Positions 2,606-42,733 of a stretch of DNA of 45,085 nucleotides are shown piece by piece. Position numbers and translations under genes: made by a program. Position 1 is the first letter of the stretch. Each line of letters begins with the position of its first letter. Under the pieces are notes generated by a model that made no database searches, had not been told where the DNA came from, and saw only the letters and a program-made list of their open reading frames with translations. Source of the DNA: an uncultured Rikenellaceae bacterium (GTDB lineage: Bacteria > Bacteroidota > Bacteroidia > Bacteroidales > VadinHA17); assembly GCA_964396955.1 (NCBI GenBank), contig CAYNGW010000001.1, forward strand, positions 1 to 45,085, written 5' to 3'.

Positions 2606-3736
2606 ATGACAATGATGATATCATATTTTTTTCTGCAATCATACTGGTGGGTGATAATATCCCTCCTCGGAAGCCTGCTGGTGTTTCTGATGTTTGTCCA
2701 GGGAGGTCAGTCAATGATCTTTTCACTGCCTGACACCGATGTCCGTAAAACAATGATAATAAATGCACTGGGAAGAAAATGGGAGTTCACATTTACTACC
2801 CTGGTGACATTTGGCGGTGCATTTTTTGCCGCTTTTCCGCTGTTTTATGCCACAAGCTTCGGAGGAGCATACTGGGTATGGATTGCAATTCTTTTAAGCT
2901 TTATAATCCAGGCAATAGCCTATGAATTCAGATCCAAGCCGGCAAATGTTCTTGGTAAAAAGACTTTTGATATTTTTCTTTTTCTCAACGGGGTACTCGG
3001 ACCTTTTCTCATCGGCACTGCAGTGGGGACCTTTTTTACGGGCTCTCAGTTCAGCCTGAATAGTATGAACAATGTGCAATGGGCCAACGGATGGCATGGG
3101 CTGGAGGCTTTGATCAACGGCAGGAATGTCGCACTCGGACTGGCAGTCCTGTTCCTGACAAGAGTTAATGGTTTGTTATATATAATTAATACTGTGGATG
3201 ACGGGGAACTTGTATGCCGGTCAGTTAAAAAACTGGTAATAAATTCTGTTTCCTTCCTTGTCTTTTTCCTCTTCTTTCTTGTTACACTCCTGGTGGCCAA
3301 TGGATTTGCAGCTGACAGTGAAACGAGCCAGATCGTGATGGAAAAATTCAAGTATCTCCATAATTTCATCCAGATGCCTGTGGTCCTTGTTTTATTCCTG
3401 GCAGGAGTTGTTGCCGTCATTTATGGCATCGGAATCACAATCTTCAGAAGCAGCCGGAAGAGTATATGGTTCAGCGGAGCAGGGACTGTTCTTACAGTTT
3501 TTGCGCTGTTCCTTGTTGCAGGATTCAACGGAACGTCATTTTATCCATCATCTTTCCAGTTGCCAGGCTCCCTTACAATTCATAATGCATCTTCAAGTCA
3601 TTTTACGCTGAGGACCATGATGTATGTTTCATTCATAATTCCATTTGTTATGGCATATATATGGTATGCATGGAAGGCAATCAATAAAAAGAAAATCACT
3701 GAGGAGGAAATGAAAGAAGAAGGGCATATTTATTAA
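2606..3736 (+). CDS. cydB: cytochrome bd ubiquinol oxidase subunit II
   Basis: Starts 2 nt after the cydA stop. 376-aa polytopic membrane protein with the usual CydB length and hydrophobicity pattern (SYWWVIISLLGSLLVFLMFVQGGQ). Confidence 0.9.
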   Translation: MTMMISYFFLQSYWWVIISLLGSLLVFLMFVQGGQSMIFSLPDTDVRKTMIINALGRKWEFTFTTLVTFGGAFFAAFPLFYATSFGGAYWVWIAILLSFIIQAIAYEFRSKPANVLGKKTFDIFLFLNGVLGPFLIGTAVGTFFTGSQFSLNSMNNVQWANGWHGLEALINGRNVALGLAVLFLTRVNGLLYIINTVDDGELVCRSVKKLVINSVSFLVFFLFFLVTLLVANGFAADSETSQIVMEKFKYLHNFIQMPVVLVLFLAGVVAVIYGIGITIFRSSRKSIWFSGAGTVLTVFALFLVAGFNGTSFYPSSFQLPGSLTIHNASSSHFTLRTMMYVSFIIPFVMAYIWYAWKAINKKKITEEEMKEEGHIY

Positions 3737-3737
3737 A

Positions 3738-3810
3738 GGTTACCGGCAACGGGCTTCAGGTTACAGGCCTGAGATATTTGGGACTGCAAGACATTAAGAC
3801 AATCAGACAA
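3738..3810. repeat. heptad array (GGnnnCn x5, 3738-3772) plus octad array (nAAGACAn x3, 3787-3810) between convergent cydB and pssA
   Basis: ggttacc / ggcaacg / ggcttca / ggttaca / ggcctga starts 2 nt after the cydB stop. caagacat / taagacaa / tcagacaa ends 8 nt before the pssA stop. Confidence 0.7.
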
Positions 3811-3817
3811 CACTTTC

Positions 3818-4540
3818 CTACCTGAATAACAGCGAAATAAGAGAGATAATTATATACAATGGTATTATCAGGGTAGCTCCGGCGAGGCCAAAAACTGCCA
3901 GGGCTGCAATCACCAGTATAACAAGGATATACCGTTCTTCATTTCCCCTGAGCTTCAGATGAGCGAATTTCAAAGAGAACATTGGGATGCGGGTAACCAT
4001 AAGCAGGGAAAGTACTGTTGTGAAAATTATTATTGCCACGGTGGATCCCGCAAGACCGGCGATCAAACCGGAATCTGAATAATTCAGGGCAATAACAATC
4101 CCGACAACTGCAAGTGCATTTGCCGGGGTAGGCAGACCTTTAAATGAAGTAGCCTGGGTTTCGTCAGTGTTGAATATTGCGAGCCGCAGGCCGGCACAAA
4201 CAGGCATAATCGCCGGAGAAATGAGAATCATCACCGGAAGAAACCCATCAGCATTGATTATCATCGGAGCTGATAATGAGAGAGATGTGCCCAGAAGCTG
4301 GTAGATCAATATGGCTGGTGCCACACCGAAGCTTACAACGTCAGCAAGAGAATCGAGTTCCTTGCCAATTGGTGAATATGCTTTCAGGAGCCTTGCGGAA
4401 AAACCATCAAGAAAATCGAATATCATTGCTGCCAGGATAAGCCATGAGCCTGTTGCAAGATCTCCGTTCAGGGCATAAATAATAGCAATAAAACCGGCTG
4501 CAAGATTAAGAGAAGTAATGAAATTGGGAATATGCTTCAT
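3818..4540 (-). CDS. pssA: CDP-diacylglycerol--serine O-phosphatidyltransferase (CDP-alcohol phosphatidyltransferase family)
   Basis: Motif DGFSARLLKAYSPIGKELDSLADVVSFG matches D-G-x2-A-R-x8-G-x3-D-x3-D. The start is set at MKHIPNFITSLNLAAG (ATG at 4540). The 51 codons upstream in the ORF track look non-coding. Confidence 0.85.
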   Translation of the reverse strand: MKHIPNFITSLNLAAGFIAIIYALNGDLATGSWLILAAMIFDFLDGFSARLLKAYSPIGKELDSLADVVSFGVAPAILIYQLLGTSLSLSAPMIINADGFLPVMILISPAIMPVCAGLRLAIFNTDETQATSFKGLPTPANALAVVGIVIALNYSDSGLIAGLAGSTVAIIIFTTVLSLLMVTRIPMFSLKFAHLKLRGNEERYILVILVIAALAVFGLAGATLIIPLYIIISLISLLFR

Positions 4541-4627: not shown

Positions 4628-5086
4628 ATGGCAATGATTGATTTCAACAATATAAAGATCGCAGTTGATTTTGACGGGACTATCGTTGAGCATCAGTACC
4701 CGGAAATAGGCAAGGAAAAACTATTTGCTTTTCAGACTCTCAAGGAGCTTGAAAAAAGAGGGGCCAGGATTATACTCTGGACATTCAGGACCGGCAAGGA
4801 GCTTGAAGATGCTGTAAATTTTTGCAATCAGAACGGAGTTGAATTCTATGCAGTAAACAAGAATTATCCTGAAGAGGTGCAGGATGAAACTGTGAGCCGG
4901 AAAATAGATGCAGACATATATATTGATGATAAGAATATCGGAGGATTCCCCGGATGGAGCGAGGTATGGCAGATGCTTTATCCTTTTGAAATTCAGCAGA
5001 AAGAAGCAGAAAAAAGGATCACCTCAGCAAGAAAGAATATTTTCAAACGTTTATTTGCATGGATAAAGAAAACAGATGAAAAGTGA
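4628..5086 (+). CDS. HAD-superfamily-like small hydrolase (hypothetical)
   Basis: DxDxT-type motif (IAVDFDGTIV) near the N-terminus and a later DD pair (YIDDKN). First ATG in the ORF is at 4628. Function not assignable. Confidence 0.5.
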   Translation: MAMIDFNNIKIAVDFDGTIVEHQYPEIGKEKLFAFQTLKELEKRGARIILWTFRTGKELEDAVNFCNQNGVEFYAVNKNYPEEVQDETVSRKIDADIYIDDKNIGGFPGWSEVWQMLYPFEIQQKEAEKRITSARKNIFKRLFAWIKKTDEK

Positions 5087-5090
5087 TTAT

Positions 5091-6197
5091 ATGAAATACA
5101 TACTTTCCCTTTTTGTGCTGCTCACGGTAACATGGATAATTTCATGTTCCGGCAGACCCGGGAAAGCTACGGAAGGGAAAACAGAACCTGGTCCAATAAC
5201 TGAAGAGGAGACTTTTACTAACCTGATAACAATGACAATCCCGGCTGAAAATTCAGAATTCAAACTTGAAGAGCCGATGAAGGTGGTTCTGGCACAGGAT
5301 AACATGAGAGTTCCACCTGACTCAATACTAATCTTTTTTGACGGAAAAGCTGTGGCTACTCTCGGGCCGGGATTATGGGAATACACAATCCCTTCATCTT
5401 TTACAGCAAGTACCGGAAGAAAATCACTGAAAGTATCAGCATATAAAAAAGGCAAAGCAAGGACAACAATCACACGGTTCATGATTGTCCTCTCAGATAT
5501 TGTCCCTGAGCGGAATGGTTACAGGATAATACATGAATTTCGTCATGACAGGGATGCATTTACCCAGGGGCTTTTTTACGATAATGGCTCGTTGTACGAA
5601 GGAACCGGGCAGGAAACAGGTTCCACCCTGAGGGAGGTGGAACTTGCGACAGGAAAAGTCATTCGCCAGCTGAATCTTGAGCCTCCTCTTTTTGGTGAAG
5701 GGATAACTCTATATAAGGACAGGATATACCAGGTTACATGGAGATCCAAAGTCGGATTTGTTTATGACAAAGCCACCTTCAGCCAGATTAACAGGATCTA
5801 TTACCAGAGCGAGGGCTGGGGTTTGACAACAATTAAAGATCAGATAGTTATGAGCGACGGGACGAATGTTCTGTATTTCTTTGAACCTGAAATGTTTACT
5901 GTAGTTTCCCGGCTTGAGGTATATGACAATGAGAAAAAAGCGGATCAGCTTAACGAGCTGGAATATATCAATGGCGAGATCTGGGCAAACATCTGGATGT
6001 CTGATCTGATCGCAAGGATTGATCCCGTATCAGGCAGGATAATTGCTTACATCGACCTCAGGGGAATACTGAAAGATCCTGATACTGATACAAGCGTAAA
6101 TGTGCTGAACGGTATTGCTTATGATAAAGAGGGGAACAGGATCTTTGTGACCGGCAAAAACTGGCCAAAGCTGTTTGAGATAAAGCTTATTGAATGA
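5091..6197 (+). CDS. glutaminyl-peptide cyclotransferase (beta-propeller type), lipoprotein
   Basis: Signal peptide with lipobox (LLTVTWIISCSG). The C-terminal ~250 aa (YRIIHEFRHDRDAFTQGLFYDNGSLYEGTGQ ... NGIAYD ... FVTGKNWPKLFEI) resemble plant/bacterial glutamine cyclotransferases. There is an extra ~120-aa N-terminal domain. Confidence 0.8.
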   Translation: MKYILSLFVLLTVTWIISCSGRPGKATEGKTEPGPITEEETFTNLITMTIPAENSEFKLEEPMKVVLAQDNMRVPPDSILIFFDGKAVATLGPGLWEYTIPSSFTASTGRKSLKVSAYKKGKARTTITRFMIVLSDIVPERNGYRIIHEFRHDRDAFTQGLFYDNGSLYEGTGQETGSTLREVELATGKVIRQLNLEPPLFGEGITLYKDRIYQVTWRSKVGFVYDKATFSQINRIYYQSEGWGLTTIKDQIVMSDGTNVLYFFEPEMFTVVSRLEVYDNEKKADQLNELEYINGEIWANIWMSDLIARIDPVSGRIIAYIDLRGILKDPDTDTSVNVLNGIAYDKEGNRIFVTGKNWPKLFEIKLIE

Positions 6198-16937: not shown

Positions 16938-18113
16938 TTAAATATTGGAACCGGAGACGGGTCTTGCATAAACAACGACATCTGCCCCGGTAATTTCATC
17001 TTTGCAGAGGATAATCATCCTTTCAAGGACATTCCGGAATTCCCTTATGTTGCCTGTCCATACTATCTTCTGCAACTCCTTTAGAGCATCCGGCCTGATG
17101 GTTTTCTTACTCATTCCGTATTCCTTGCAGATTACTGAATTAAAATGGTCTGCAAGGAGCGGGATATCCTCTTCGCGTTCATTGAGGGTAGGAACATGGA
17201 TAAGAATTACGCTCAGACGGTGATACAAGTCTTCCCTGAATCCGTTCTTTTCTATTTCATGCTTGATATTCTTATTGGTGGCAGTAATAATTCTCACGTT
17301 CACCTGGATGTCCTTATCGGAGCCTACTCTTGTTATCCTGTTCTCCTGGAGGGCCCTGAGTACTTTAGCCTGGGCAGACAGGCTCATATCGCCTATCTCA
17401 TCAAGAAAAAGAGTGCCACCGTTTGCCTGTTCGAATTTGCCGATACGCTGTTTTATAGCTGAGGTAAAAGAACCTTTTTCGTGACCAAATAACTCACTCT
17501 CAATAAGTTCTGATGGAATGGCGGCACAATTGACTTCGACGAATGGTCCCTTTGCCCTGCTGCTTTTCTCGTGTATCTGATGTGCCACCAGCTCTTTCCC
17601 TGTTCCGTTTGCACCGGTGATCAGGATTCTTGCCTCGGTAGAAGCAACCCTGTCAATCATCTCCTTAACCCTCATGATAGACTCAGATTCTCCGACTATC
17701 TCATACATTTTGCTGACCTTATTCTTAAGGACCTGTGTCTGGGTAATAAGGGTTGATTTATCCGTGGCATTACGGATGGTGATCAATAGCCTGTTAAGGT
17801 CGAGAGGTTTTTCAAGAAAGTCGTAAGCTCCCTTCTTTATGGCGTCAACGGCTGTATCAATATTCCCATGGCCTGAGATCATAACAACAGGAGTGACTGT
17901 TGACATATCGGTTATCTTCTGGAGAACTTCGATACCATCCATTTTCTGCATTTTAATATCGCACAGGACAATATCATATGTGTTGGAAGAGAAAAGTTCA
18001 ATTCCAGTCGGGCCGTCTTCAGCAAGATCTACCTCATGCTTCTCGTATTCCAGAACTTCCTTAAGGGTGTTCCGGATAGCTTTTTCATCGTCTATAACTA
18101 AGATTTTTGACAT
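16938..18113 (-). CDS. sigma-54-dependent response regulator (receiver + AAA+ activator) lacking a C-terminal DNA-binding domain
   Basis: Receiver domain (ILVIDDE...VLCDIKMQKMDG...EKP). Walker A GANGTGKE, Walker B LFLDEIG, sigma-54 contact loop ELFGHEKGSFTSA, and WTGNIREFRNVLER. The protein ends about 25 aa after that motif (391 aa), so no Fis-type HTH is present. Confidence 0.88.
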   Translation of the reverse strand: MSKILVIDDEKAIRNTLKEVLEYEKHEVDLAEDGPTGIELFSSNTYDIVLCDIKMQKMDGIEVLQKITDMSTVTPVVMISGHGNIDTAVDAIKKGAYDFLEKPLDLNRLLITIRNATDKSTLITQTQVLKNKVSKMYEIVGESESIMRVKEMIDRVASTEARILITGANGTGKELVAHQIHEKSSRAKGPFVEVNCAAIPSELIESELFGHEKGSFTSAIKQRIGKFEQANGGTLFLDEIGDMSLSAQAKVLRALQENRITRVGSDKDIQVNVRIITATNKNIKHEIEKNGFREDLYHRLSVILIHVPTLNEREEDIPLLADHFNSVICKEYGMSKKTIRPDALKELQKIVWTGNIREFRNVLERMIILCKDEITGADVVVYARPVSGSNI

Positions 18114-18143
18114 ATCTTATAATTGGAAGTTACTTATTTTGTT

Positions 18144-18220
18144 AAGAGGCGACAGGCATCAGGCAACAGGCTACAGGGAATAAACACCTGACGCCTGAAG
18201 CCCGACGCCTGAAGCCTATC
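18144..18220. repeat. two inverted heptad arrays (nnCAGGC x5, a 7-nt spacer, GCCTGnn x5) forming a segmented hairpin
   Basis: aagaggc / gacaggc / atcaggc / aacaggc / tacaggg, spacer aataaac, then acctgac / gcctgaa / gcccgac / gcctgaa / gcctatc. Exactly 11 heptads. The right arm overlaps the stop and last codon of the ABC permease. Confidence 0.85.
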
Positions 18221-19574
18221 CTGAGTATCTCAGCCATTTCCACATTTCTTTGTACGATGTTTTCTTGCCATACATCAGTATCCCGGTTCTGTAGATCTTC
18301 GCCGCCATCCACACACATCCTGCAAATGTTATCACCATGAGGAACATTGAAATTGCTATCTGCCAGTAGGGTACGCCAAAAGGTATCCGAGCCATCATTA
18401 CAATAGGGGAGGTGAAAGGGATTATCGAGAACCATAAGGCAATGGAGCTTTCCGGATTCTGCATGGTTCCCATTGCCACCATGAGAGCGAAGATAATAGG
18501 TATGGCAACAGGCAGCATAAACTGCTGTGTTTCAGTTTCGTTATCTACTGCCGATCCTATCGCCGCAAATATTGAAGCATACAGAAGGTAACCGGTAACA
18601 AAATAGAATATGAATGATAAAATTATCAGGATCCAGTCCTGGTTCATCGCATTATCGAACAATTTTGTAAATTCCGCCATATCAGCGGACATCTCATCTG
18701 TCTGGGTTGCAGTGGCAATTTGCTGTTTTCCATCCATTATGTTCTGGGGCATGGTCTGAGTAATTTCAGTTACCCCCTTATCCTTCAGTACTGTTGCTTT
18801 CACCACCATAACAATTCCTGCAGTAAGAATTATCCAGATAAAGAACTGGGTAAGGCCTACCAGTGCAATGCCAATGATCTTACCCATCATAAGCTGAACA
18901 GGTTTGACCGAGGAGACAATAACCTCGACAACCCTGCTCGTTTTTTCTTCGATAACGCCTCTCATAACCATTGATCCGAACATGAAAACAAGCATGTACA
19001 TAAGGAACCCGCTGATATATGCCAGAGCCATTGCAATGCCTGTGCTGGTTTTTACAGACTGTCCCGAATCGTCGATTTTAATAGTCTGAATTGATACATT
19101 TGTATTGACGTCCTTAAGGATATTATCGAGATCCTTGATATTGTATGCAAGAAGCTTTTGCCTTTCAATTTCCTTTTCGAGCGCGCCGGAAATATGTTCA
19201 AGCAGGGTGAGAGGCGGCTGTTTTTTGGAAATGAGCTGTATCGCATTCGGAGTATTTATTATTTCCGGTGAGATCCACAGAATACCATAATATCCGGCCT
19301 CTTCGAAGTTCGTTTTAAGGTCTTCAACCGATGTGTTTTCCAGGTAGATATAATCAGCATCTTTTGTGTCGGGTATGACATTTTTGAACAGGTCAGAGCC
19401 ATCTTCAATCACAGCGATCTTTTTAAAATCCTTATCTCCATTCAGCATAAGAAGAGTCGGAACAACCATCAGCGAAGCCAGCAGCACGGGTGCAAGTATG
19501 GTCATTATGATAAATGATTTCTTCCTGACCCTGGTCATGTATTCCCTGCTTATTATTACAGATATTTTATTCAT
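18216..19574 (-). CDS. ABC-2 type transporter permease (NatB-like)
   Basis: 452 aa. One N-terminal TM, a ~150-aa extracytoplasmic domain, then 5-6 C-terminal TM helices. Encoded 18 nt downstream of the ABC ATPase. Confidence 0.8.
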   Translation of the reverse strand: MNKISVIISREYMTRVRKKSFIIMTILAPVLLASLMVVPTLLMLNGDKDFKKIAVIEDGSDLFKNVIPDTKDADYIYLENTSVEDLKTNFEEAGYYGILWISPEIINTPNAIQLISKKQPPLTLLEHISGALEKEIERQKLLAYNIKDLDNILKDVNTNVSIQTIKIDDSGQSVKTSTGIAMALAYISGFLMYMLVFMFGSMVMRGVIEEKTSRVVEVIVSSVKPVQLMMGKIIGIALVGLTQFFIWIILTAGIVMVVKATVLKDKGVTEITQTMPQNIMDGKQQIATATQTDEMSADMAEFTKLFDNAMNQDWILIILSFIFYFVTGYLLYASIFAAIGSAVDNETETQQFMLPVAIPIIFALMVAMGTMQNPESSIALWFSIIPFTSPIVMMARIPFGVPYWQIAISMFLMVITFAGCVWMAAKIYRTGILMYGKKTSYKEMWKWLRYSG

Positions 19575-19592
19575 AGTATGGATTTTTCAGGA

Positions 19593-20501
19593 TTAATTAC
19601 GTGATTCAACTACACGGATAAATATTTCATTCATTGACGGAAGAGCAGGGTTGAATGAGATTATCCTGCCTGATTTCATTGCTGTTTTAAGGATATCATT
19701 ATTCGCAATATCCCCGGCAGTTTTTATCCTCATTGTGCTCCTGTTATTTTCAAACTGGTTATTAAGGATCTTAAACTGGCCGTTTCCTTCAAATTTAGCC
19801 TCTCCCTCAAAAACAAGTTCATATTCATTGGCAGCCCATTGCCTGCGGATCTCATCCACGCTTCCCTCAAGGATGGTCTTTGCTTTGTCGATAAGAGTAA
19901 TATTATCACATAATTCCTCAACCGATCCCATATTATGAGTAGAGAAGATTATAGTGGCTCCTCTTTCCCGGAGGAACAGAATTTCATTCTTGATAATATT
20001 GGCATTTACAGGGTCAAATCCCGTGAACGGCTCATCGAAAATGATCAGTTTTGGTTCATGCAGGATAGTGGTCACGAACTGCACTTTCTGCTGCATTCCT
20101 TTTGACAGCTCTTCCACCTTCTTTTCCCACCAGTCAACCATATCAAGTTTTTTGAACCAATATTTCAGTCTTCGTATGGCTTCTGCCTTGGTAAGTCCTT
20201 TTAGCTGGGCAAAATAGATCGCCTGTTCGCCAATTTTCATTTTTTTGTACAAGCCGCGTTCCTCCGGAAGGTAGCCAATGACCAGGACATCCTCCGGAAC
20301 CAGCTTCCGACCGCTCATGTAAAGCTCCCCCGCATCAGGGCCGGTTATCTGGTTAATGATCCTGATCAGCGTTGTTTTACCGGCTCCGTTCGGACCCAGA
20401 AGTCCGTAAATGCATTGTTCAGGCACAGATATGCTGACATTATCCAGTGCCTTGAAACTACCGAACTGTTTGATTATGTTCTTTGCTTCAAATAGTGACA
20501 T
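19593..20501 (-). CDS. ABC transporter ATP-binding protein (NatA-like)
   Basis: Walker A GPNGAGKTT, signature LSKGMQQKV, Walker B LIIFDEP, H-loop STHNM. Confidence 0.92.
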   Translation of the reverse strand: MSLFEAKNIIKQFGSFKALDNVSISVPEQCIYGLLGPNGAGKTTLIRIINQITGPDAGELYMSGRKLVPEDVLVIGYLPEERGLYKKMKIGEQAIYFAQLKGLTKAEAIRRLKYWFKKLDMVDWWEKKVEELSKGMQQKVQFVTTILHEPKLIIFDEPFTGFDPVNANIIKNEILFLRERGATIIFSTHNMGSVEELCDNITLIDKAKTILEGSVDEIRRQWAANEYELVFEGEAKFEGNGQFKILNNQFENNRSTMRIKTAGDIANNDILKTAMKSGRIISFNPALPSMNEIFIRVVESRN

Positions 20502-20530
20502 AGAAAAATGGTTAGTTGTTAAATGAGTGT

Positions 20531-20538
20531 CAAATATA
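20531..20538 (-). promoter_or_regulatory. -7 promoter box TATATTTG (TAnnTTTG) for the ABC transporter genes
   Basis: Exact consensus match on the minus strand, 30 nt upstream of the ATG at 20501. Confidence 0.45.
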
Positions 20539-20561
20539 TGAAAACTATGTTTTTAAAATGT

Positions 20562-20590
20562 ACTCACCCCCATTCTTTTTGGGGGTGAGT
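20562..20590 (-). terminator. perfect 10-bp GC-rich hairpin downstream of dnaJ (putative terminator)
   Basis: ACTCACCCCC / GGGGGTGAGT arms with a 9-nt loop, 12 nt after the dnaJ stop. On the transcribed strand it is followed by ACATTTTAAAAAC, a weak U tract. Confidence 0.5.
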
Positions 20591-20602
20591 GCATGAATTC
20601 TC

Positions 20603-21745
20603 CTATTCAAAATATCCCCTCATCCTTTCGAAAAAACCTTTATCGCTTTTATCGGGTTTTGGGGTGAAGGTACCTGACTCTTTGAATTTTTCTATGATTT
20701 TTGCTTCTTCCCTGGTCAGGATCTTAGGGATCCAGACATTGACATTAACCAGCAGATCTCCTCTTCCATAGCCATTGACCTCAGGGAGTCCTTTTCCTCT
20801 TAAGCGCAGGATCTTTCCGGGCTGGGTTCCTGGTTCAATTTTTATTTTGACATTATTATCTATTGTAGGCACTTCAACATGAGCGCCGAGGACAGCATCA
20901 GGGATACTTATGAACAAATTGTAGATCAGGTCGTTACCTTCCCGTATCAGATCAGGATGGCTCTCCTCGTCAATCACAACCAGCAGGTCGCCGTGAACTC
21001 CTCCCCGTCTTGGAGCATTGCCCTTTCCGGACACCGTCATTTGCATCCCTTTACCAACTCCTGCAGGTATATTGATTTTAATAATATCTTCCTTCTGTAC
21101 TATCCCTTCACCGTAACACGCAGAACATTTTTTAGCAATTGTCTTTCCCTCTCCTCCGCATGCAGGGCATACTGAGGTTGTCTGCATCTGTCCCAGCATG
21201 GTATTTGTAACTCTCGTCACATGTCCGGAGCCGCGGCATGTTGAACATGTTGACAGGCTGTTCGAGTCGGCAGCACCTGTTCCCCCACAAGCAGTACAGG
21301 TACTATACCTTGAGACCCTGATCTTTTTCTCAACACCATTGGCTATTTCGAGAAGTGATAGCTTAACCTTCACCCTGAGGTTGGTTCCCTTATTTACTCT
21401 CCTTCCCCGTCTGCTGCTTCCGAATGTTCCGAATCCGCCAAAAGCATCACCGAAAATATCCCCGAATGATGAGAAGATATCCTCCATGGTCATGCCGCCG
21501 CCGAATCCGTTTCCTCCGCTGCCTAAACCCGCATGACCAAACCGGTCGTACCTGGCTCTTTTCTCATCATTGCTTAAGACCCCGTATGCTTCGGCAGCCT
21601 CTTTAAAACGTTCCTCTGATTTTTTATCGCCTGGATTTTTATCAGGATGGTATTTCAAAGCCTGCTTCCTGTAAGCCTTCTTTATCTCCTCCTTTGTGGC
21701 ATTTTTTGATATTCCGAGTACCTCGTAATAATCTCTTTTTTCCAT
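20603..21745 (-). CDS. dnaJ: molecular chaperone DnaJ
   Basis: J domain ([35 protein letters not shown]), a G/F-rich linker and four CxxCxGxG zinc-finger repeats. Confidence 0.95.
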
Positions 21746-21760
21746 CCGCTTGCATTGTTT

Positions 21761-21789
21761 AATACCGGAGCTCTACCGGAACCGGTATT
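21761..21789 (-). other. intercistronic hairpin between grpE and dnaJ
   Basis: AATACCGG ... CCGGTATT (8-bp arms, 13-nt loop). The loop holds a second TACCGG copy that could pair alternatively. The 3' arm overlaps the grpE stop codon by 1 nt. Confidence 0.4.
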
Positions 21790-22415
21790 TATTCTCCGAC
21801 AACCACCTTTGCATGTCTTATAACCTTATCCAGCAGGTAATATCCTTTTTGCACCACCTCCACTATTTTCCCTTTTTTATCCTCTTCCTGAGTCTGCACT
21901 TTAGCTACAGCATGATGCAGGTCGACATTAAATTCACAATTCAGGGATTCAATTTCCCTGACATCATTTTGTTTAAGGAATTCATTGAGTTTCAGGTAAA
22001 TAAGATCAATCCCCTCTTTCATTGCAGCCTTATCGGTTGCTGTATCAAGATGTGAAAGAGCCCTTTCAAAATCGTCCATGAAAGACAGTATGTTGATAAG
22101 CACATTCTCACTGGCATACTTTGACAATTCCATTTTCTCACGCAGGGTTCTTCTTCTGTAATTATCAAATTCAGCCGACAAACGCAGATATTTATCCTGC
22201 ATTTCTGCCAGTTTTTCCTCAAAAGATTTTTCTTCAGGTACAGGTTTGTCAGAGGCTTGCTGTTCTGCTGCAGTGGTTTCTTTCCCCTGGTCCTCTTCCC
22301 CCGTCACAGGCGAAACAGCTTCCTGTGAAGGGCTATTCTCTTTGTTTTCAGCCGTTTCGCTTTTATCTTTTTGTTTGGTTTCGTGCTGATCAGGTGTTTT
22401 TTTCTTTACCATCAC
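21789..22415 (-). CDS. grpE: nucleotide exchange factor GrpE
   Basis: Acidic, low-complexity N-terminus, then LRLSAEFDNYRRRTLRE and a C-terminal beta domain (VVQKGYYLLDKVIRHAKVVV). Confidence 0.92.
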   Translation of the reverse strand: MMVKKKTPDQHETKQKDKSETAENKENSPSQEAVSPVTGEEDQGKETTAAEQQASDKPVPEEKSFEEKLAEMQDKYLRLSAEFDNYRRRTLREKMELSKYASENVLINILSFMDDFERALSHLDTATDKAAMKEGIDLIYLKLNEFLKQNDVREIESLNCEFNVDLHHAVAKVQTQEEDKKGKIVEVVQKGYYLLDKVIRHAKVVVGE

Positions 22416-22446
22416 ATGTGTTATTTCGGTTTAATATATCCTGATC

Positions 22447-22463
22447 AAGCAAATTGCTTGCCA
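22447..22463 (-). promoter_or_regulatory. sigma-54-type -24/-12 element (TGGCAAG-N4-TTGCT) embedded in a 15-nt palindrome, upstream of grpE
   Basis: The minus strand reads TGGCAAGCAATTTGCTT. This has GG-N10-GC spacing and one mismatch to TGGCACG-N4-TTGCW. It lies about 32 nt upstream of the grpE ATG and overlaps the palindrome CAAGCAA-A-TTGCTTG (22446-22460). Confidence 0.4.
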
Positions 22464-22472
22464 TGAGGCAAT

Positions 22473-22642
22473 AATTGACAAATTGACAGGAGAAAAGGCT
22501 TTACGGTGTTACGGCATTACGGCAGAAATTCAAATCTTTGGTTTTGCCTTAAAGCCCTGACACCCTAACGCCTTTACGCCCTAAAGCCCTAACGCCTTTA
22601 CGCCCTAAAGCCCTAACGCCTTTACGCCCTAAAGCCCTAAAG
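22473..22642. repeat. chain of octad arrays: AATTGACA x2, nnTTACGG x3, CCYTWAMG x12 (including three perfect 24-bp units)
   Basis: aattgaca x2 (22473-22488). ctttacgg / tgttacgg / cattacgg (22499-22522). 12 octads at 22547-22642, with ccctaacgcctttacgccctaaag repeated perfectly at 22563, 22587 and 22611. The last octad contains the murA stop codon. Confidence 0.9.
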
Positions 22643-23941
22643 CCGTTTAATATCCGCTCCCAGTGCATTGAGCCTCAGATCTATATCCTGGTAGCCCCGG
22701 TCTATCTGTTCGATATTATGAATAACGCTTTTTCCTTCAGCGGAGAGGGCAGCAATAAGAAGGGCAACACCTGCCCTGATATCAGGGGATGACATAATAG
22801 TGCCGCGAAGCTTTATTTTTCTGTCGTGGCCTATTACTGCGGCTCTGTGAGGATCGCAAAGAATTATCTGAGCACCCATATCGATAAGCTTGTCAACAAA
22901 AAAAAGGCGGCTTTCAAACATTTTCTGATGGATCAGGACTGCGCCCTTGGCCTGTGTTGCGGTAACAAGGAATACACTTAGCAGATCGGGAGTCAATCCC
23001 GGCCATATTGCATCAGCGATCGTCATTATTGAACCATCAATGAAGGTTTCAATTTCATAATGTTCCTGACGGGGGATACAGATATCATCACCGGATCTTT
23101 CGAGTCTGATGCCGAGCCTCCGGAAAGAATCAGGGATGATGCCGAGGTTTTGGTATGAAACATTTTTGATGGTGATCTCTGATTCCGTCATTGCTGCCAT
23201 ACCTATGAATGAACCGATCTCGATCATATCCGGGAGAATCGTATGTGTACAGCCTTTAAGTTCCTTCACTCCATCAATATAGAGCAGGTTTGATCCGGTA
23301 CCATCTATTTTAGCACCCATTGAAACAAGCATTCTGCAAAGCTGCTGAACATAGGGTTCACAGGCAGCGTTATAAATTGTTGTGCGTCCTTTTGCCAGCA
23401 CGGCAGCCATTATAATATTGGCAGTTCCTGTAACTGATGCCTCGTCAAGGTGTATAAATGTGCCTTCCAGGGCAGATGCTTCAATCTTAAAGAAAGGATC
23501 AGAGAGGTCAAATTCAAATTTTGCTCCAAGCTTCTGAAAGCCAATTAAATGTGTATCAACCCGGCGGCGGCCTATTTTATCTCCGCCCGGTTTCGGGATA
23601 AAAGCTTTTCCAAACCTCGCCAGGAGAGGGCCAACGACCATAATAGATCCCCTGATGCTGTTGCTTTGAGACCTGTACTCATTTGTAAGAAGATAATCAA
23701 GATTGATTTCAGCTGCTGTGAACCTGATTGTGGATTTAGATTCCCTTAAAACCTTTACTCCCAGGCATTCAACCAGCTTGATCAGCCTGTTGACGTCACT
23801 GATGCATGGAATATTGTGAATTGTTATTGTTTCGGAGGTGAGAAGTGTTGCACAGATTACCTGTAAAGCTTCATTTTTAGCACCCTGTGGGAAAATTTCC
23901 CCTTTAAGGGATTTCCCGCCTTGAACAATAAAAGTCCCCAT
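22637..23941 (-). CDS. murA: UDP-N-acetylglucosamine 1-carboxyvinyltransferase
   Basis: Full-length 434 aa. N-terminus FIVQGGKSLKGEIFPQGAKNEALQV, KPGGDKIGRRRVDTH (Asp where many MurA enzymes have the active-site Cys) and C-terminal IDRGYQDIDLRLNALGADI. Confidence 0.95.
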   Translation of the reverse strand: MGTFIVQGGKSLKGEIFPQGAKNEALQVICATLLTSETITIHNIPCISDVNRLIKLVECLGVKVLRESKSTIRFTAAEINLDYLLTNEYRSQSNSIRGSIMVVGPLLARFGKAFIPKPGGDKIGRRRVDTHLIGFQKLGAKFEFDLSDPFFKIEASALEGTFIHLDEASVTGTANIIMAAVLAKGRTTIYNAACEPYVQQLCRMLVSMGAKIDGTGSNLLYIDGVKELKGCTHTILPDMIEIGSFIGMAAMTESEITIKNVSYQNLGIIPDSFRRLGIRLERSGDDICIPRQEHYEIETFIDGSIMTIADAIWPGLTPDLLSVFLVTATQAKGAVLIHQKMFESRLFFVDKLIDMGAQIILCDPHRAAVIGHDRKIKLRGTIMSSPDIRAGVALLIAALSAEGKSVIHNIEQIDRGYQDIDLRLNALGADIKRL

Positions 23942-25430: not shown

Positions 25431-25478
25431 GGTGCAACGGAGCAATGGTACAACGGTACAAAGGCGCAAAGGTTCTAT
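25431..25478. repeat. octad array GGnnCAAn x5-6
   Basis: ggtgcaac / ggagcaat / ggtacaac / ggtacaaa / ggcgcaaa / ggttctat. It ends 18 nt downstream of the CapA-like stop and lies upstream of the NicO-like gene. Confidence 0.8.
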
Positions 25479-41128: not shown

Positions 41129-41887
41129 ATGTGGTTTTCTAACTGGCTATCAAATAACTATATCGAAGTCTTCGGGGCTGTTACCGGTATTATTTATGTC
41201 ATACTGGAAATAAGGCAGAACATATGGTTATGGCCGGTAGGAATAGCGACTTCGGCAGTTTATATATGGGTGTTCTTTACGAGTAAATTTTATGCTGACA
41301 TGAGTCTGCAGGGGTACTACCTGGTTATAAGTGTACTGGGGTGGTACTGGTGGATAAAGGGCGGAGGGCGGATGGCGGAGGGCGAAGGGCAAGAGGCGCA
41401 GAGCTCAGGGCGCAGGGCTCAGGGCGCAGGGCAGAAGGCAAAGGGCGAAGAGCAGGGGGCGCAGAACGCAGAGCTAATGGCGCAGGGCGAAGAACAACTA
41501 GATGCTGATACAGAGCTCCCCTCCTCGGAGGAGTTGGGGGTGGGTATTGAAAGACCTGGAAAACTTAAAGTAACAAGAATAAGTCTAAAAACTACGCTTA
41601 TTCTCTCGGCTGTATTTTTGGCTCTTCTTGCAGTTATGTATCTGGTGCTTGACAGACTCACGGATTCACCGGTGCCTTTCTGGGATTCGTTTATTACAAC
41701 TCTGTCAATTATAGCCACATGGATGCTTGCCAGGAAGATTTACGAACACTGGTATCTGTGGATCGTTGTTAATGCTGCTTCAGTACTGTTGTTTTATACG
41801 AGAGGGCTTTACCCGACTGTCGTGCTTTACATTATTTATTGTGCCATGTCGTTTGTGGGCCTTAATGAATGGAAACGTACACTCTGA
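41129..41887 (+). CDS. pnuC: PnuC-family transporter (thiamine-type PnuT by context) carrying an in-frame ~60-aa low-complexity insertion
   Basis: Seven TM helices in a 3+1+3 layout. WYWW motif after TM3. Located in a TPP-riboswitch operon next to TPK. The TM3-TM4 loop contains GRMAEGEGQEAQSSGRRAQGAGQKAKGEEQGAQNAELMAQGEEQLDADTELPSSEELGVG. Confidence 0.85.
   Translation: MWFSNWLSNNYIEVFGAVTGIIYVILEIRQNIWLWPVGIATSAVYIWVFFTSKFYADMSLQGYYLVISVLGWYWWIKGGGRMAEGEGQEAQSSGRRAQGAGQKAKGEEQGAQNAELMAQGEEQLDADTELPSSEELGVGIERPGKLKVTRISLKTTLILSAVFLALLAVMYLVLDRLTDSPVPFWDSFITTLSIIATWMLARKIYEHWYLWIVVNAASVLLFYTRGLYPTVVLYIIYCAMSFVGLNEWKRTL
41355..41494 (+). repeat. heptad array x20 (consensus CGCAGGG) inside the PnuC-family CDS
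   Basis: taaaggg cggaggg cggatgg cggaggg cgaaggg caagagg cgcagag ctcaggg cgcaggg ctcaggg cgcaggg cagaagg caaaggg cgaagag caggggg cgcagaa cgcagag ctaatgg cgcaggg cgaagaa. The register is unbroken for 140 nt. It is followed by the palindrome CCCCTCCTCGGAGGAGTTGGGGG (41518-41540). Confidence 0.9.
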
Positions 41888-42632: not shown

Positions 42633-42635
42633 AAA

Positions 42636-42733
42636 GTCCTGCAGGTCTTGCCAGTCCTGCCAGTCTTGCATGTCATTTAACCCGAGAGGACCTGCACGAC
42701 CTGCATGACCTGCATGACTTGCATGACAATCTC
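42636..42733. repeat. two nonamer arrays (GTCYTGCMn x4-5 and GACYTGCAY x4-5) filling the spacer between the convergent TPK and LuxR-type genes
   Basis: gtcctgcag / gtcttgcca / gtcctgcca / gtcttgcat / gtcatttaa, then cccgagag, then gacctgcac / gacctgcat / gacctgcat / gacttgcat / gacaatctc. It starts 4 nt after the TPK stop and runs into the LuxR-type stop codon. Confidence 0.85.

Follow-up and report, generated by a model that had tools for sequence, protein, structure and literature searches.

Hairpins built of heptanucleotide repeats have been known in cyanobacteria for more than 30 years and, to our knowledge, have no accepted origin or function. S23p/PF05635 intervening sequences of 23S rRNA are found in Coxiella burnetii, Leptospira and other bacteria; PF05635 is the 23S-rRNA intervening-sequence protein, S23p, an Avd-like four-helix bundle. 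The REP/BIME elements of Enterobacteria and the REPINs of Pseudomonas are multicopy extragenic imperfect palindromes, which often lie just after stop codons and within operons, and can stabilise the upstream mRNA.

[quoted passage not shown] In the tRNA-Leu intron of Nostoc, the P6b stem consists of two classes of 7-nt repeats that are mutually replaced between lineages (PMC4476775). Heptanucleotides are the commonest class of long SSRs (5-11 nt) according to Mrazek 2007, as that work is cited in PMC4679880, and repeats of the heptamer TAACTGA occur in Beggiatoaceae, Cyanobacteria and some Bacteroidetes (PMC4679880). The S23p intervening sequence in the 23S rRNA of Coxiella carries an S23p ORF, a terminal stem that RNase III cleaves, and heptamers of sequence GACAGAT in tandem that vary in number between strains (PMC4990558).

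Here we analyse a heptad hairpin at positions 18144-18220 of a 45,085-nt stretch of DNA (the window) from an uncultured Bacteroidales genome. It resembles the STRR hairpins in its 7-nt units with a degenerate core, its complementary arrays and its segmented stem-loop and, like the STRR between hupS and hupL, it occupies an intra-operon spacer. The Bacteroidales arrays also share with the STRR and P6b repeats a variable number of units and the replacement of whole repeat classes between relatives. Unlike cyanobacterial STRR, they occur in Bacteroidales, have other unit sequences, coexist in periods of 7, 8 and 9, abut stop codons and are linked to PF05635. With the S23p intervening sequences the element has in common the complementary ends that form a long stem and the tandem heptamers, and the PF05635 cassette of a congener has CAGGC/GCCTG arms. 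In contrast to those sequences, it has no ORF and is located in an mRNA spacer rather than in helix 25 or 45 of 23S rRNA, and its RNase III site is putative.

The family of hairpins to which the element belongs can also be compared with REP/BIME and REPINs, since both comprise multicopy extragenic imperfect palindromes after stop codons and inside operons, and both appear as non-autonomous relatives of a gene-carrying element. However, the arms in the hairpin family are tandem arrays, whose 7-9-nt units have many unrelated cores, and the associated gene is PF05635, not the RAYT transposase. Membership of REP/BIME was rejected for 18144-18220: the conserved GTAG or CGTC head is absent, and the arms are tandem heptads. 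Long SSRs and TAACTGA repeats resemble the arrays described here in the dominance of heptamers, the intergenic enrichment and the sporadic taxonomic distribution (PMC4679880), but most of them are direct arrays, in many cases a short way ahead of a start codon, whereas here we observe inverted pairs on the stop-codon side. A literature search for repeat hairpins in Bacteroidales returned nothing specific. Relative to the known heptad-repeat hairpins, the occurrence in Bacteroidales, the lack of a gene and the location in an mRNA spacer are new.

Structure and gene setting of the hairpin

The hairpin is located between the ABC transporter genes and the regulator gene, all on the minus strand, with the following features:

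16938..18113, minus strand: sigma-54-dependent response regulator gene (receiver and AAA+ domains), immediately downstream of the hairpin
18114..18143, minus strand: A/U-rich unstructured leader from the hairpin to the regulator start codon (from the fold and the sequences of relatives)
18144..18178, minus strand: 3' arm in mRNA sense, CCCTGTA GCCTGTT GCCTGAT GCCTGTC GCCTCTT, of GCCTGnn type
18179..18185, minus strand: loop heptad, GTTTATT in mRNA sense, 7 nt, register maintained
18186..18220, minus strand: 5' arm in mRNA sense, GATAGGC TTCAGGC GTCGGGC TTCAGGC GTCAGGT; the first heptad holds the permease stop codon
18216..18218, minus strand: TAG stop codon of the ABC-2 permease, within the outermost heptad and the basal helix
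18216..19574, minus strand: ABC-2 family permease gene, PF12698
19593-20501, minus strand: ABC ATPase gene, upstream of the permease gene

Read on the plus strand, arm 1 begins at 18144 with the five nnCAGGC heptads AAGAGGC GACAGGC ATCAGGC AACAGGC TACAGGG. The middle heptad AATAAAC forms the 7-nt loop and is followed by arm 2, up to 18220, with the five GCCTGnn heptads ACCTGAC GCCTGAA GCCCGAC GCCTGAA GCCTATC. Both the sequence and TRF confirm the initial annotation of eleven heptads in one unbroken register of 77 nt; TRF reports period 7 on both arms with 4.4 copies per arm. Five of the ten cores are perfect and the other five have one mismatch, and an inverted-repeat search returned arms of 27 nt that are 78% complementary. 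Like STRR and long SSRs, the element thus consists of degenerate 7-nt units in head-to-tail arrangement and in at least three copies.

The sense (minus-strand) RNA has a predicted folding energy of -53.2 kcal/mol (z = -7.9), which none of 200 shuffled sequences equalled. The proposed segmented hairpin does fold beyond shuffled controls, and the view that the pattern is not accidental is supported. The plus strand is predicted to fold with -44.9 kcal/mol (z = -6.5). It had also been stated that the cores pair and the variable dinucleotides never do. That description is valid for the plus strand only, because in the transcribed strand a GU dinucleotide opposite AU pairs and joins a continuous helix of 12 bp. 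Rfam covariance models, run over 17000-23500 with E <= 1, gave no relevant family. The leader at 18114-18143 is partly conserved among close relatives, with TCCAATTWTAAG in loci L001 and L014.

The gene map supports the placement of the hairpin between the ABC genes and the sigma-54 regulator gene on the same strand. The view that it is not a canonical intrinsic terminator is supported as well: there is no U tract 3' of the stem, where the flank reads CUCUUAACAAAAUAAG, and a terminator scan of the locus found no canonical site covering the whole hairpin. A scan for sigma-70 promoters yielded nothing useful, and the 700 nt that precede the regulator gene contain neither Bacteroidetes-type TAnnTTTG motifs nor sigma-54 promoter motifs. 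Full termination at the hairpin is unlikely: the regulator gene has no promoter motif ahead of it, and the permease-regulator spacer is only 16-23 nt long in the sister clade described below. We also rejected a phase-variable contingency SSR; the array runs from the stop codon to a point 30 nt ahead of the following start codon, with no promoter motif nearby.

Short-unit arrays and PF05635 genes

The genome (2.23 Mb in 300 contigs, 42% G+C, ~84% complete) contains at least 184 arrays, counted with TRF as having period 6-11 and at least three copies. Period 7 accounts for 88 of them and period 8 for 57. Non-coding DNA holds 140 of the 184 arrays (76%), compared with ~10% of all DNA being non-coding (p = 1e-101). 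Within same-strand spacers the arrays lie closer to the upstream stop codon than to the downstream start codon in a ratio of 43:23 (p = 0.02), with 22 arrays at most 6 nt from the stop and 6 arrays at most 6 nt from the start, and in convergent spacers 14 of 21 arrays abut a stop codon. Divergent spacers, of which there are 224, contain 24 arrays. The depletion from divergent spacers that terminators would be expected to show is not seen. The units have 7-9 nt, a constant GC-rich core and 2-3 free positions; their sequences are very diverse, with many singletons. The arrays are abundant in the genus, concentrated in spacers where they abut stop codons, and turn over quickly between species. 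Occurrence at many loci, intergenic enrichment, and variable copy number and unit class are features of STRR and long SSRs, too.

Seventeen pairs of adjacent arrays are mutually complementary (TRF), and all 17 fold as segmented hairpins, with periods of 7, 8 or 9 and one weak case of 10. Two CAGGC-type hairpins, C5:22284 and C20:18141, were missed by the TRF pair screen; they fold in the same way and raise the number of inverted pairs to at least 19. Some inverted arrays sit in divergent spacers. For the eight hairpins between same-strand genes, the sense strand is the more stable one in four and the less stable one in four. The genome also includes single-arm arrays, arrays in divergent spacers and arrays within genes. 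A constant core with a variable linker, which the initial annotation had taken as a mark of selection for the hairpin, is a general property of the at least 184 arrays, these included, and does not support that view.

Further repeats of this kind are visible in the window, among them two of the 17 complementary pairs, the octad and the nonamer hairpin that follow. Downstream of an EPSP-synthase-family gene, an octad hairpin at 22497-22644 has 4 GGCnTTAC units facing 12 GCCyTAAn units; it contains a perfect 3 x 24-bp tandem, and its sense strand (-60.2 kcal/mol) folds better than the other strand (-43.7). Between two convergent genes at 42635-42727, a nonamer hairpin is formed by four GTCyTGCnn units facing four nnGACyTGC units, and its unit family recurs at C176:3608-3691 and C277:942-1018. 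Octad arrays of GGTACAAC/GGTGCAAC are found at 25431-25461 and at 14 other loci of this genome (G000). A dispersed REP-like repeat of ~42 nt, CCCCTCCTTGCGnnAGCAGGGAGGGGGAnnAAGGGGGTGGGT, is present at 41518-41545 and at 14 other sites of the genome, for example C19:1010-1051 and C44:5306-5346. Only 1 of 15 copies of the 42-nt CCCCTCC...GGGGGTGGGT element lies near an array in this genome; a link between the two was rejected, and we regard the element and the arrays as unrelated here.

Two PF05635 genes lie side by side on contig C143, each between complementary inverted arrays (the cassettes are the loci L098 and L099):

C143:3758-4072, minus strand: PF05635 gene 1, in a cassette at 3581-4188 with arms (CCAGATT)x16.7 and (AACCTGG/AACATGG)x10.4
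C143:4791-5105, plus strand: PF05635 gene 2, in a cassette at 4640-5180 with arms of GGTGCAAC octads and GTTGNACC octads

A further octad hairpin is located at 1700-1775 of the same contig. Arrays of both arm families occur elsewhere in the genome without a gene, in a C139 hairpin, on C54 and at 15 loci of the GGTGCAAC family, including 25431-25461 of the window; the octad arrays at these loci have the unit family of the second cassette's arms. The solved structure nearest to the PF05635 protein is 2GSC (Xanthomonas XCC0516), and the family shares homology with Avd, a protein of diversity-generating retroelements (PMC10053308).

The association of the gene with arrays extends beyond this genome. 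A PF05635 gene is present in 37 of 41 genomes of the genus, in up to 19 copies. Complementary arrays of period 7-9 (TRF) bracket 20 of 31 copies from the genus, and 29 of the 31 have at least one flanking array; for copies from 20 other genera the corresponding figures are 11 of 20 and 20 of 20. At a density of ~82 arrays per Mb, arrays within 350 nt on both sides are expected by chance for only ~1 in 1000 random genes. Four PF05635-rich genomes contain 62-112 arrays per Mb, and four PF05635-free genomes and one PF05635-poor genome contain 0-50 per Mb, most of which are low-complexity AT-rich arrays or period-6 repeats in coding sequence, in a comparison of 80-kb samples from a small set of nine non-independent genomes. 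Such arrays form two complementary arms around small PF05635 genes, including one nnCAGGC/GCCTGnn case. In this case, from a congener (G002:C350), the gene at 843-1196 is located between six or seven nnCAGGC units and ~22 TCGCCTG units. The left arm, AAGGC GA CAGGC AA CAGGC TA CAGGT AA CGGGC GA TAGGC, is of the same type as in 18144-18220, which has the complementary terminal arms, long stem and tandem heptamers of the cassettes.

Three consecutive CAGGC heptads were found in 22 of the 41 genomes of the genus, where a single genome can reach 61 pattern hits, and are absent from the other 19. Elsewhere in the order only 4 of ~148 genera have the pattern, each with 1-2 hits, and controls with the pattern reversed gave almost none. 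Variants of the CAGGC hairpin are seen at L157 (G185:C119) and L148 (G176:C6), one with a second small palindrome, TCCCGATAGCTATCGGGA, in the right arm and the other with everted arms, the GCCTG arm coming first.

The permease-regulator spacer in relatives

We compared 97 permease loci, 92 from genomes and 5 from metagenome contigs, the relatives being uncultured Bacteroidales MAGs from sediments, fens and soils. The regulator gene follows the permease gene in 84 of the 92 loci. A tree of the permease and regulator proteins separates these into a sister clade of 33 loci and a genus clade of 51 loci. Spacers in the sister clade are 16-23 nt long, counting stop and start codons, and have the appearance of an operon junction. 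Those of the genus clade range from 9 to 201 nt and differ widely in content. Inverted CAGGC/GCCTG arrays are present at L001, L002, L006/L038, L020, L029, L031, L036, L093, L095 and L097, and CAGGC arrays with one arm at L008, L076 and L096. Other genus-clade spacers contain arrays of GACAAAA, GCTCAGG, GGGCGAGA, GGGACGAA, GGTACGA or CCGGTTA, and the remaining ones have the CCCCTCC...GGGGTGGG element or nothing. The ~42-nt repeat CCCCTCCTTGCGnnAGCAGGGAGGGGGAnnAAGGGGGTGGGT fills the spacer in L015, L018, L019, L022, L027, L028, L030 and L076.

Structural conservation at the site is limited. The closest relative, L015 (87% amino-acid identity), has A-rich heptads and no hairpin (z = -0.1). Among 43 orthologous spacers, 7 fold unusually well at z < -3 and 9 at z < -2, and a conserved hairpin of any sequence was rejected on these counts. 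The initial annotation had looked to covariation and to an inverted arrangement in orthologous spacers. The latter was found, with inverted CAGGC arrays in at least 10 species, whereas no compensatory changes between the arms of orthologous hairpins were seen, and most spacers lack an unusual fold. At L014 the left arm is now of CCGG type and the right arm still of GCCTG type, which destroys the pairing. A permutation test of unit order for compensated arms, which left out five sequences, gave fractions of 0.01-0.78 and no consistent signal. The architecture of 5+5 units recurs at L001, L020, L093, L095 and L097, and may point to a constraint that acts on the hairpin.

Of 11 orthologous hairpins, 9 fold more stably on the antisense strand. 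The right arm often has GCCCG opposite CAGGC on the left (L002, L006, L014, L029, L031, L036, L093, L095 and L097), giving A.C mismatches in the mRNA and G.U pairs in the antisense strand. The asymmetry may reflect mutational bias or a role of the other strand. Sense-strand stability as a sign of mRNA-level selection (G.U versus A.C) was rejected, with 4:4 genome-wide and 2:9 against sense in the orthologs; given these ratios, the better sense fold of 18144-18220 is not meaningful. The uncompensated core change at L014, the better antisense folds and the lack of unusual folds in most genus spacers likewise speak against the constant core and variable linker as products of selection for the hairpin. 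Altogether, the comparison argues against a conserved, selected mRNA structure at the site, and a dispensable effect is compatible with the data.

More distant relatives show that gene order at the permease-regulator junction is not fixed across the order. An outgroup (G029) has a tight junction of ~6 nt. In two other families (L218 in G028 and L225 in G025), a gene of ~320 aa lies between permease and regulator, and no more than a few nt separate the stop codon of this gene from the regulator start. In another family of the order, L220 (G027:C570) has (TGTTTGT)x16 immediately after the permease stop codon, followed by an 11-nt repeat; this array settled at the equivalent position independently. 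A short spacer is likely to be ancestral, yet this is not proven, because the outgroup families differ in gene order.

Origin and effect of the hairpin

We hypothesize, with a probability of roughly 55%, that 18144-18220 is a gene-less, stem-only member of the family of inverted 7-9-nt arrays tied to PF05635 cassettes, which evolves by slippage of units and is probably an RNase III site. The hairpin resembles a selfish repeat without a gene more than a dedicated regulator, because it is one copy of a fast-changing array family that flanks four-helix-bundle genes elsewhere. Its arms suggest that it either derives from a PF05635 cassette or shares the process by which cassettes are generated. 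We infer descent from a cassette only from the shared arm type, because there is no PF05635 gene or remnant at 18144-18220, where the loop is 7 nt, there are no PF05635 matches at the 97 permease-regulator loci, and only 1 of 26 distinct CAGGC-array loci of the genus has the gene. The reverse direction could also apply, with PF05635 genes settling in pre-existing hairpins. A search of the hairpin family for target duplications and identical copies as signatures of mobility found none; set against MITEs, the inverted arms are present, no target duplication was identified, and the copies have the unit type in common but not the sequence.

In the proposed course of events, an array pair came to occupy a probably very short intra-operon spacer between permease and regulator, and the arms would then have altered through slippage of whole units. 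Mismatch repair (MutS) does not correct loops that reach 7 nt or more. Intact GC-rich cores would most likely be the ones that are re-copied, which would keep the core constant and let the linkers drift. The arrays may have extended to the stop codon because that side is unconstrained, and the A/U-rich leader before the start codon must presumably stay open. In the polycistronic transcript, an imperfect stem of ~25 bp would start in the stop codon, and its processing by RNase III would split the ABC message from the regulator message, or else the 3' end of the ABC message would be protected. By analogy with S23p intervening sequences, in which RNase III cleaves the repeat-bearing stems, the hairpin would most probably lead to processing of the ABC message by RNase III or shield its 3' end, rather than terminate transcription. 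A gene for RNase III (rnc) is present at C62:3316-3966; the 2x2 internal loops could block cleavage. The effect would be dispensable, because most congeners have no hairpin at the site.

Slippage might also have produced the hairpin without any relation to PF05635 cassettes, as a neutral heptanucleotide repeat of the STRR or long-SSR type. Arrays would then grow from local short seeds, perhaps a CAGG...CCTG mini-palindrome, the inverted copy would result from template switching, and PF05635 genes would merely accumulate arrays. The great diversity of units with its many singletons, the presence of arrays in every spacer type and within genes, and arms that are often unequal and change independently, as at L014, are in agreement with this idea, as is the rank of heptanucleotides as the commonest class of long SSRs in bacteria (Mrazek 2007, as cited in PMC4679880). 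Several sister-clade spacers read TAAACAGGnnCTGACATG; the CAGG/CCTG mini-palindrome is present in part of the sister clade only and the outgroups differ in gene order, so that growth in situ from an ancestral mini-palindrome is suggestive only. What slippage of this kind leaves unexplained is the position of PF05635 genes exactly between complementary arrays (20/31 and 11/20), the recurrence of arm families at many loci, and the abundance of CAGGC arrays in some congeners while 19 of 41 have none. We consider this explanation possible but unlikely.

A selected intercistronic regulator, adjusting how strongly the ABC transporter is expressed relative to the regulator-aspartase-HydF genes, would act by transcription attenuation, by stalling of the terminating ribosome, or by stabilisation of the upstream message as with E. 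coli REP/BIME. Its appeal lies in the very stable fold that begins in the stop codon, in the inverted CAGGC array at the site in at least 10 species, often with 5+5 units, in the A/U-rich leader that is free ahead of the start codon, and in a unit order that is near the best of the permuted orders in L001 and L020. These points are outweighed in our view, and we think a regulator quite improbable: unusually good folding is confined to 7-9 of 43 orthologous spacers and is not seen in the closest relative, antisense folds are the stronger ones in 9 of the 11 hairpins from orthologous loci and in half of the eight genome-wide, complementarity is lost at L014 with no compensatory changes seen, inverted arrays occur in divergent spacers too, and a U tract is absent. 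The symmetry of the structure on both strands, with no preference for the sense strand, would suit an element acting as DNA, whose phased cores are binding sites for a protein (for example a pentameric PF05635 protein) or whose cruciform affects replication, recombination or supercoiling. Arrays occur regardless of the direction of transcription, and DGR Avd, a relative of PF05635, is a nucleic-acid-binding partner of reverse transcriptase. However, core sequences vary so widely between arrays that no single binding specificity can account for them, a period of 7 bp does not fit the helical repeat of DNA, and binding to the cores is putative; we give such an element very little credence.

The hairpin at 18144-18220 is thus a real, non-random structure and not a bespoke regulator. 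More tentatively, and with rather more doubt than belief, we speculate that PF05635 genes with inverted 7-9-nt arms are widespread mobile or self-propagating cassettes. Bacterial heptanucleotide repeats (STRR and long SSRs), including this hairpin, might then be gene-less derivatives that act, when transcribed, as RNase III sites splitting operon messages, as the gene-carrying forms fragment 23S rRNA.

These observations also caution annotators against reading every very stable hairpin at the end of a gene in such genomes as a terminator or riboregulator. The heptad-hairpin architecture now has an example in an uncultured Bacteroidales genus, and a single locus compared over ~100 relatives allows us to trace how it is gained, replaced and lost. 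In this genus and in 20 other genera, the arrays are tied to one family of small genes, PF05635; the members of this family that sit in rRNA are excised by RNase III. Through this tie, both the origin of the hairpins (cassette-derived or not) and their effect (processing of operon transcripts or not) become testable.
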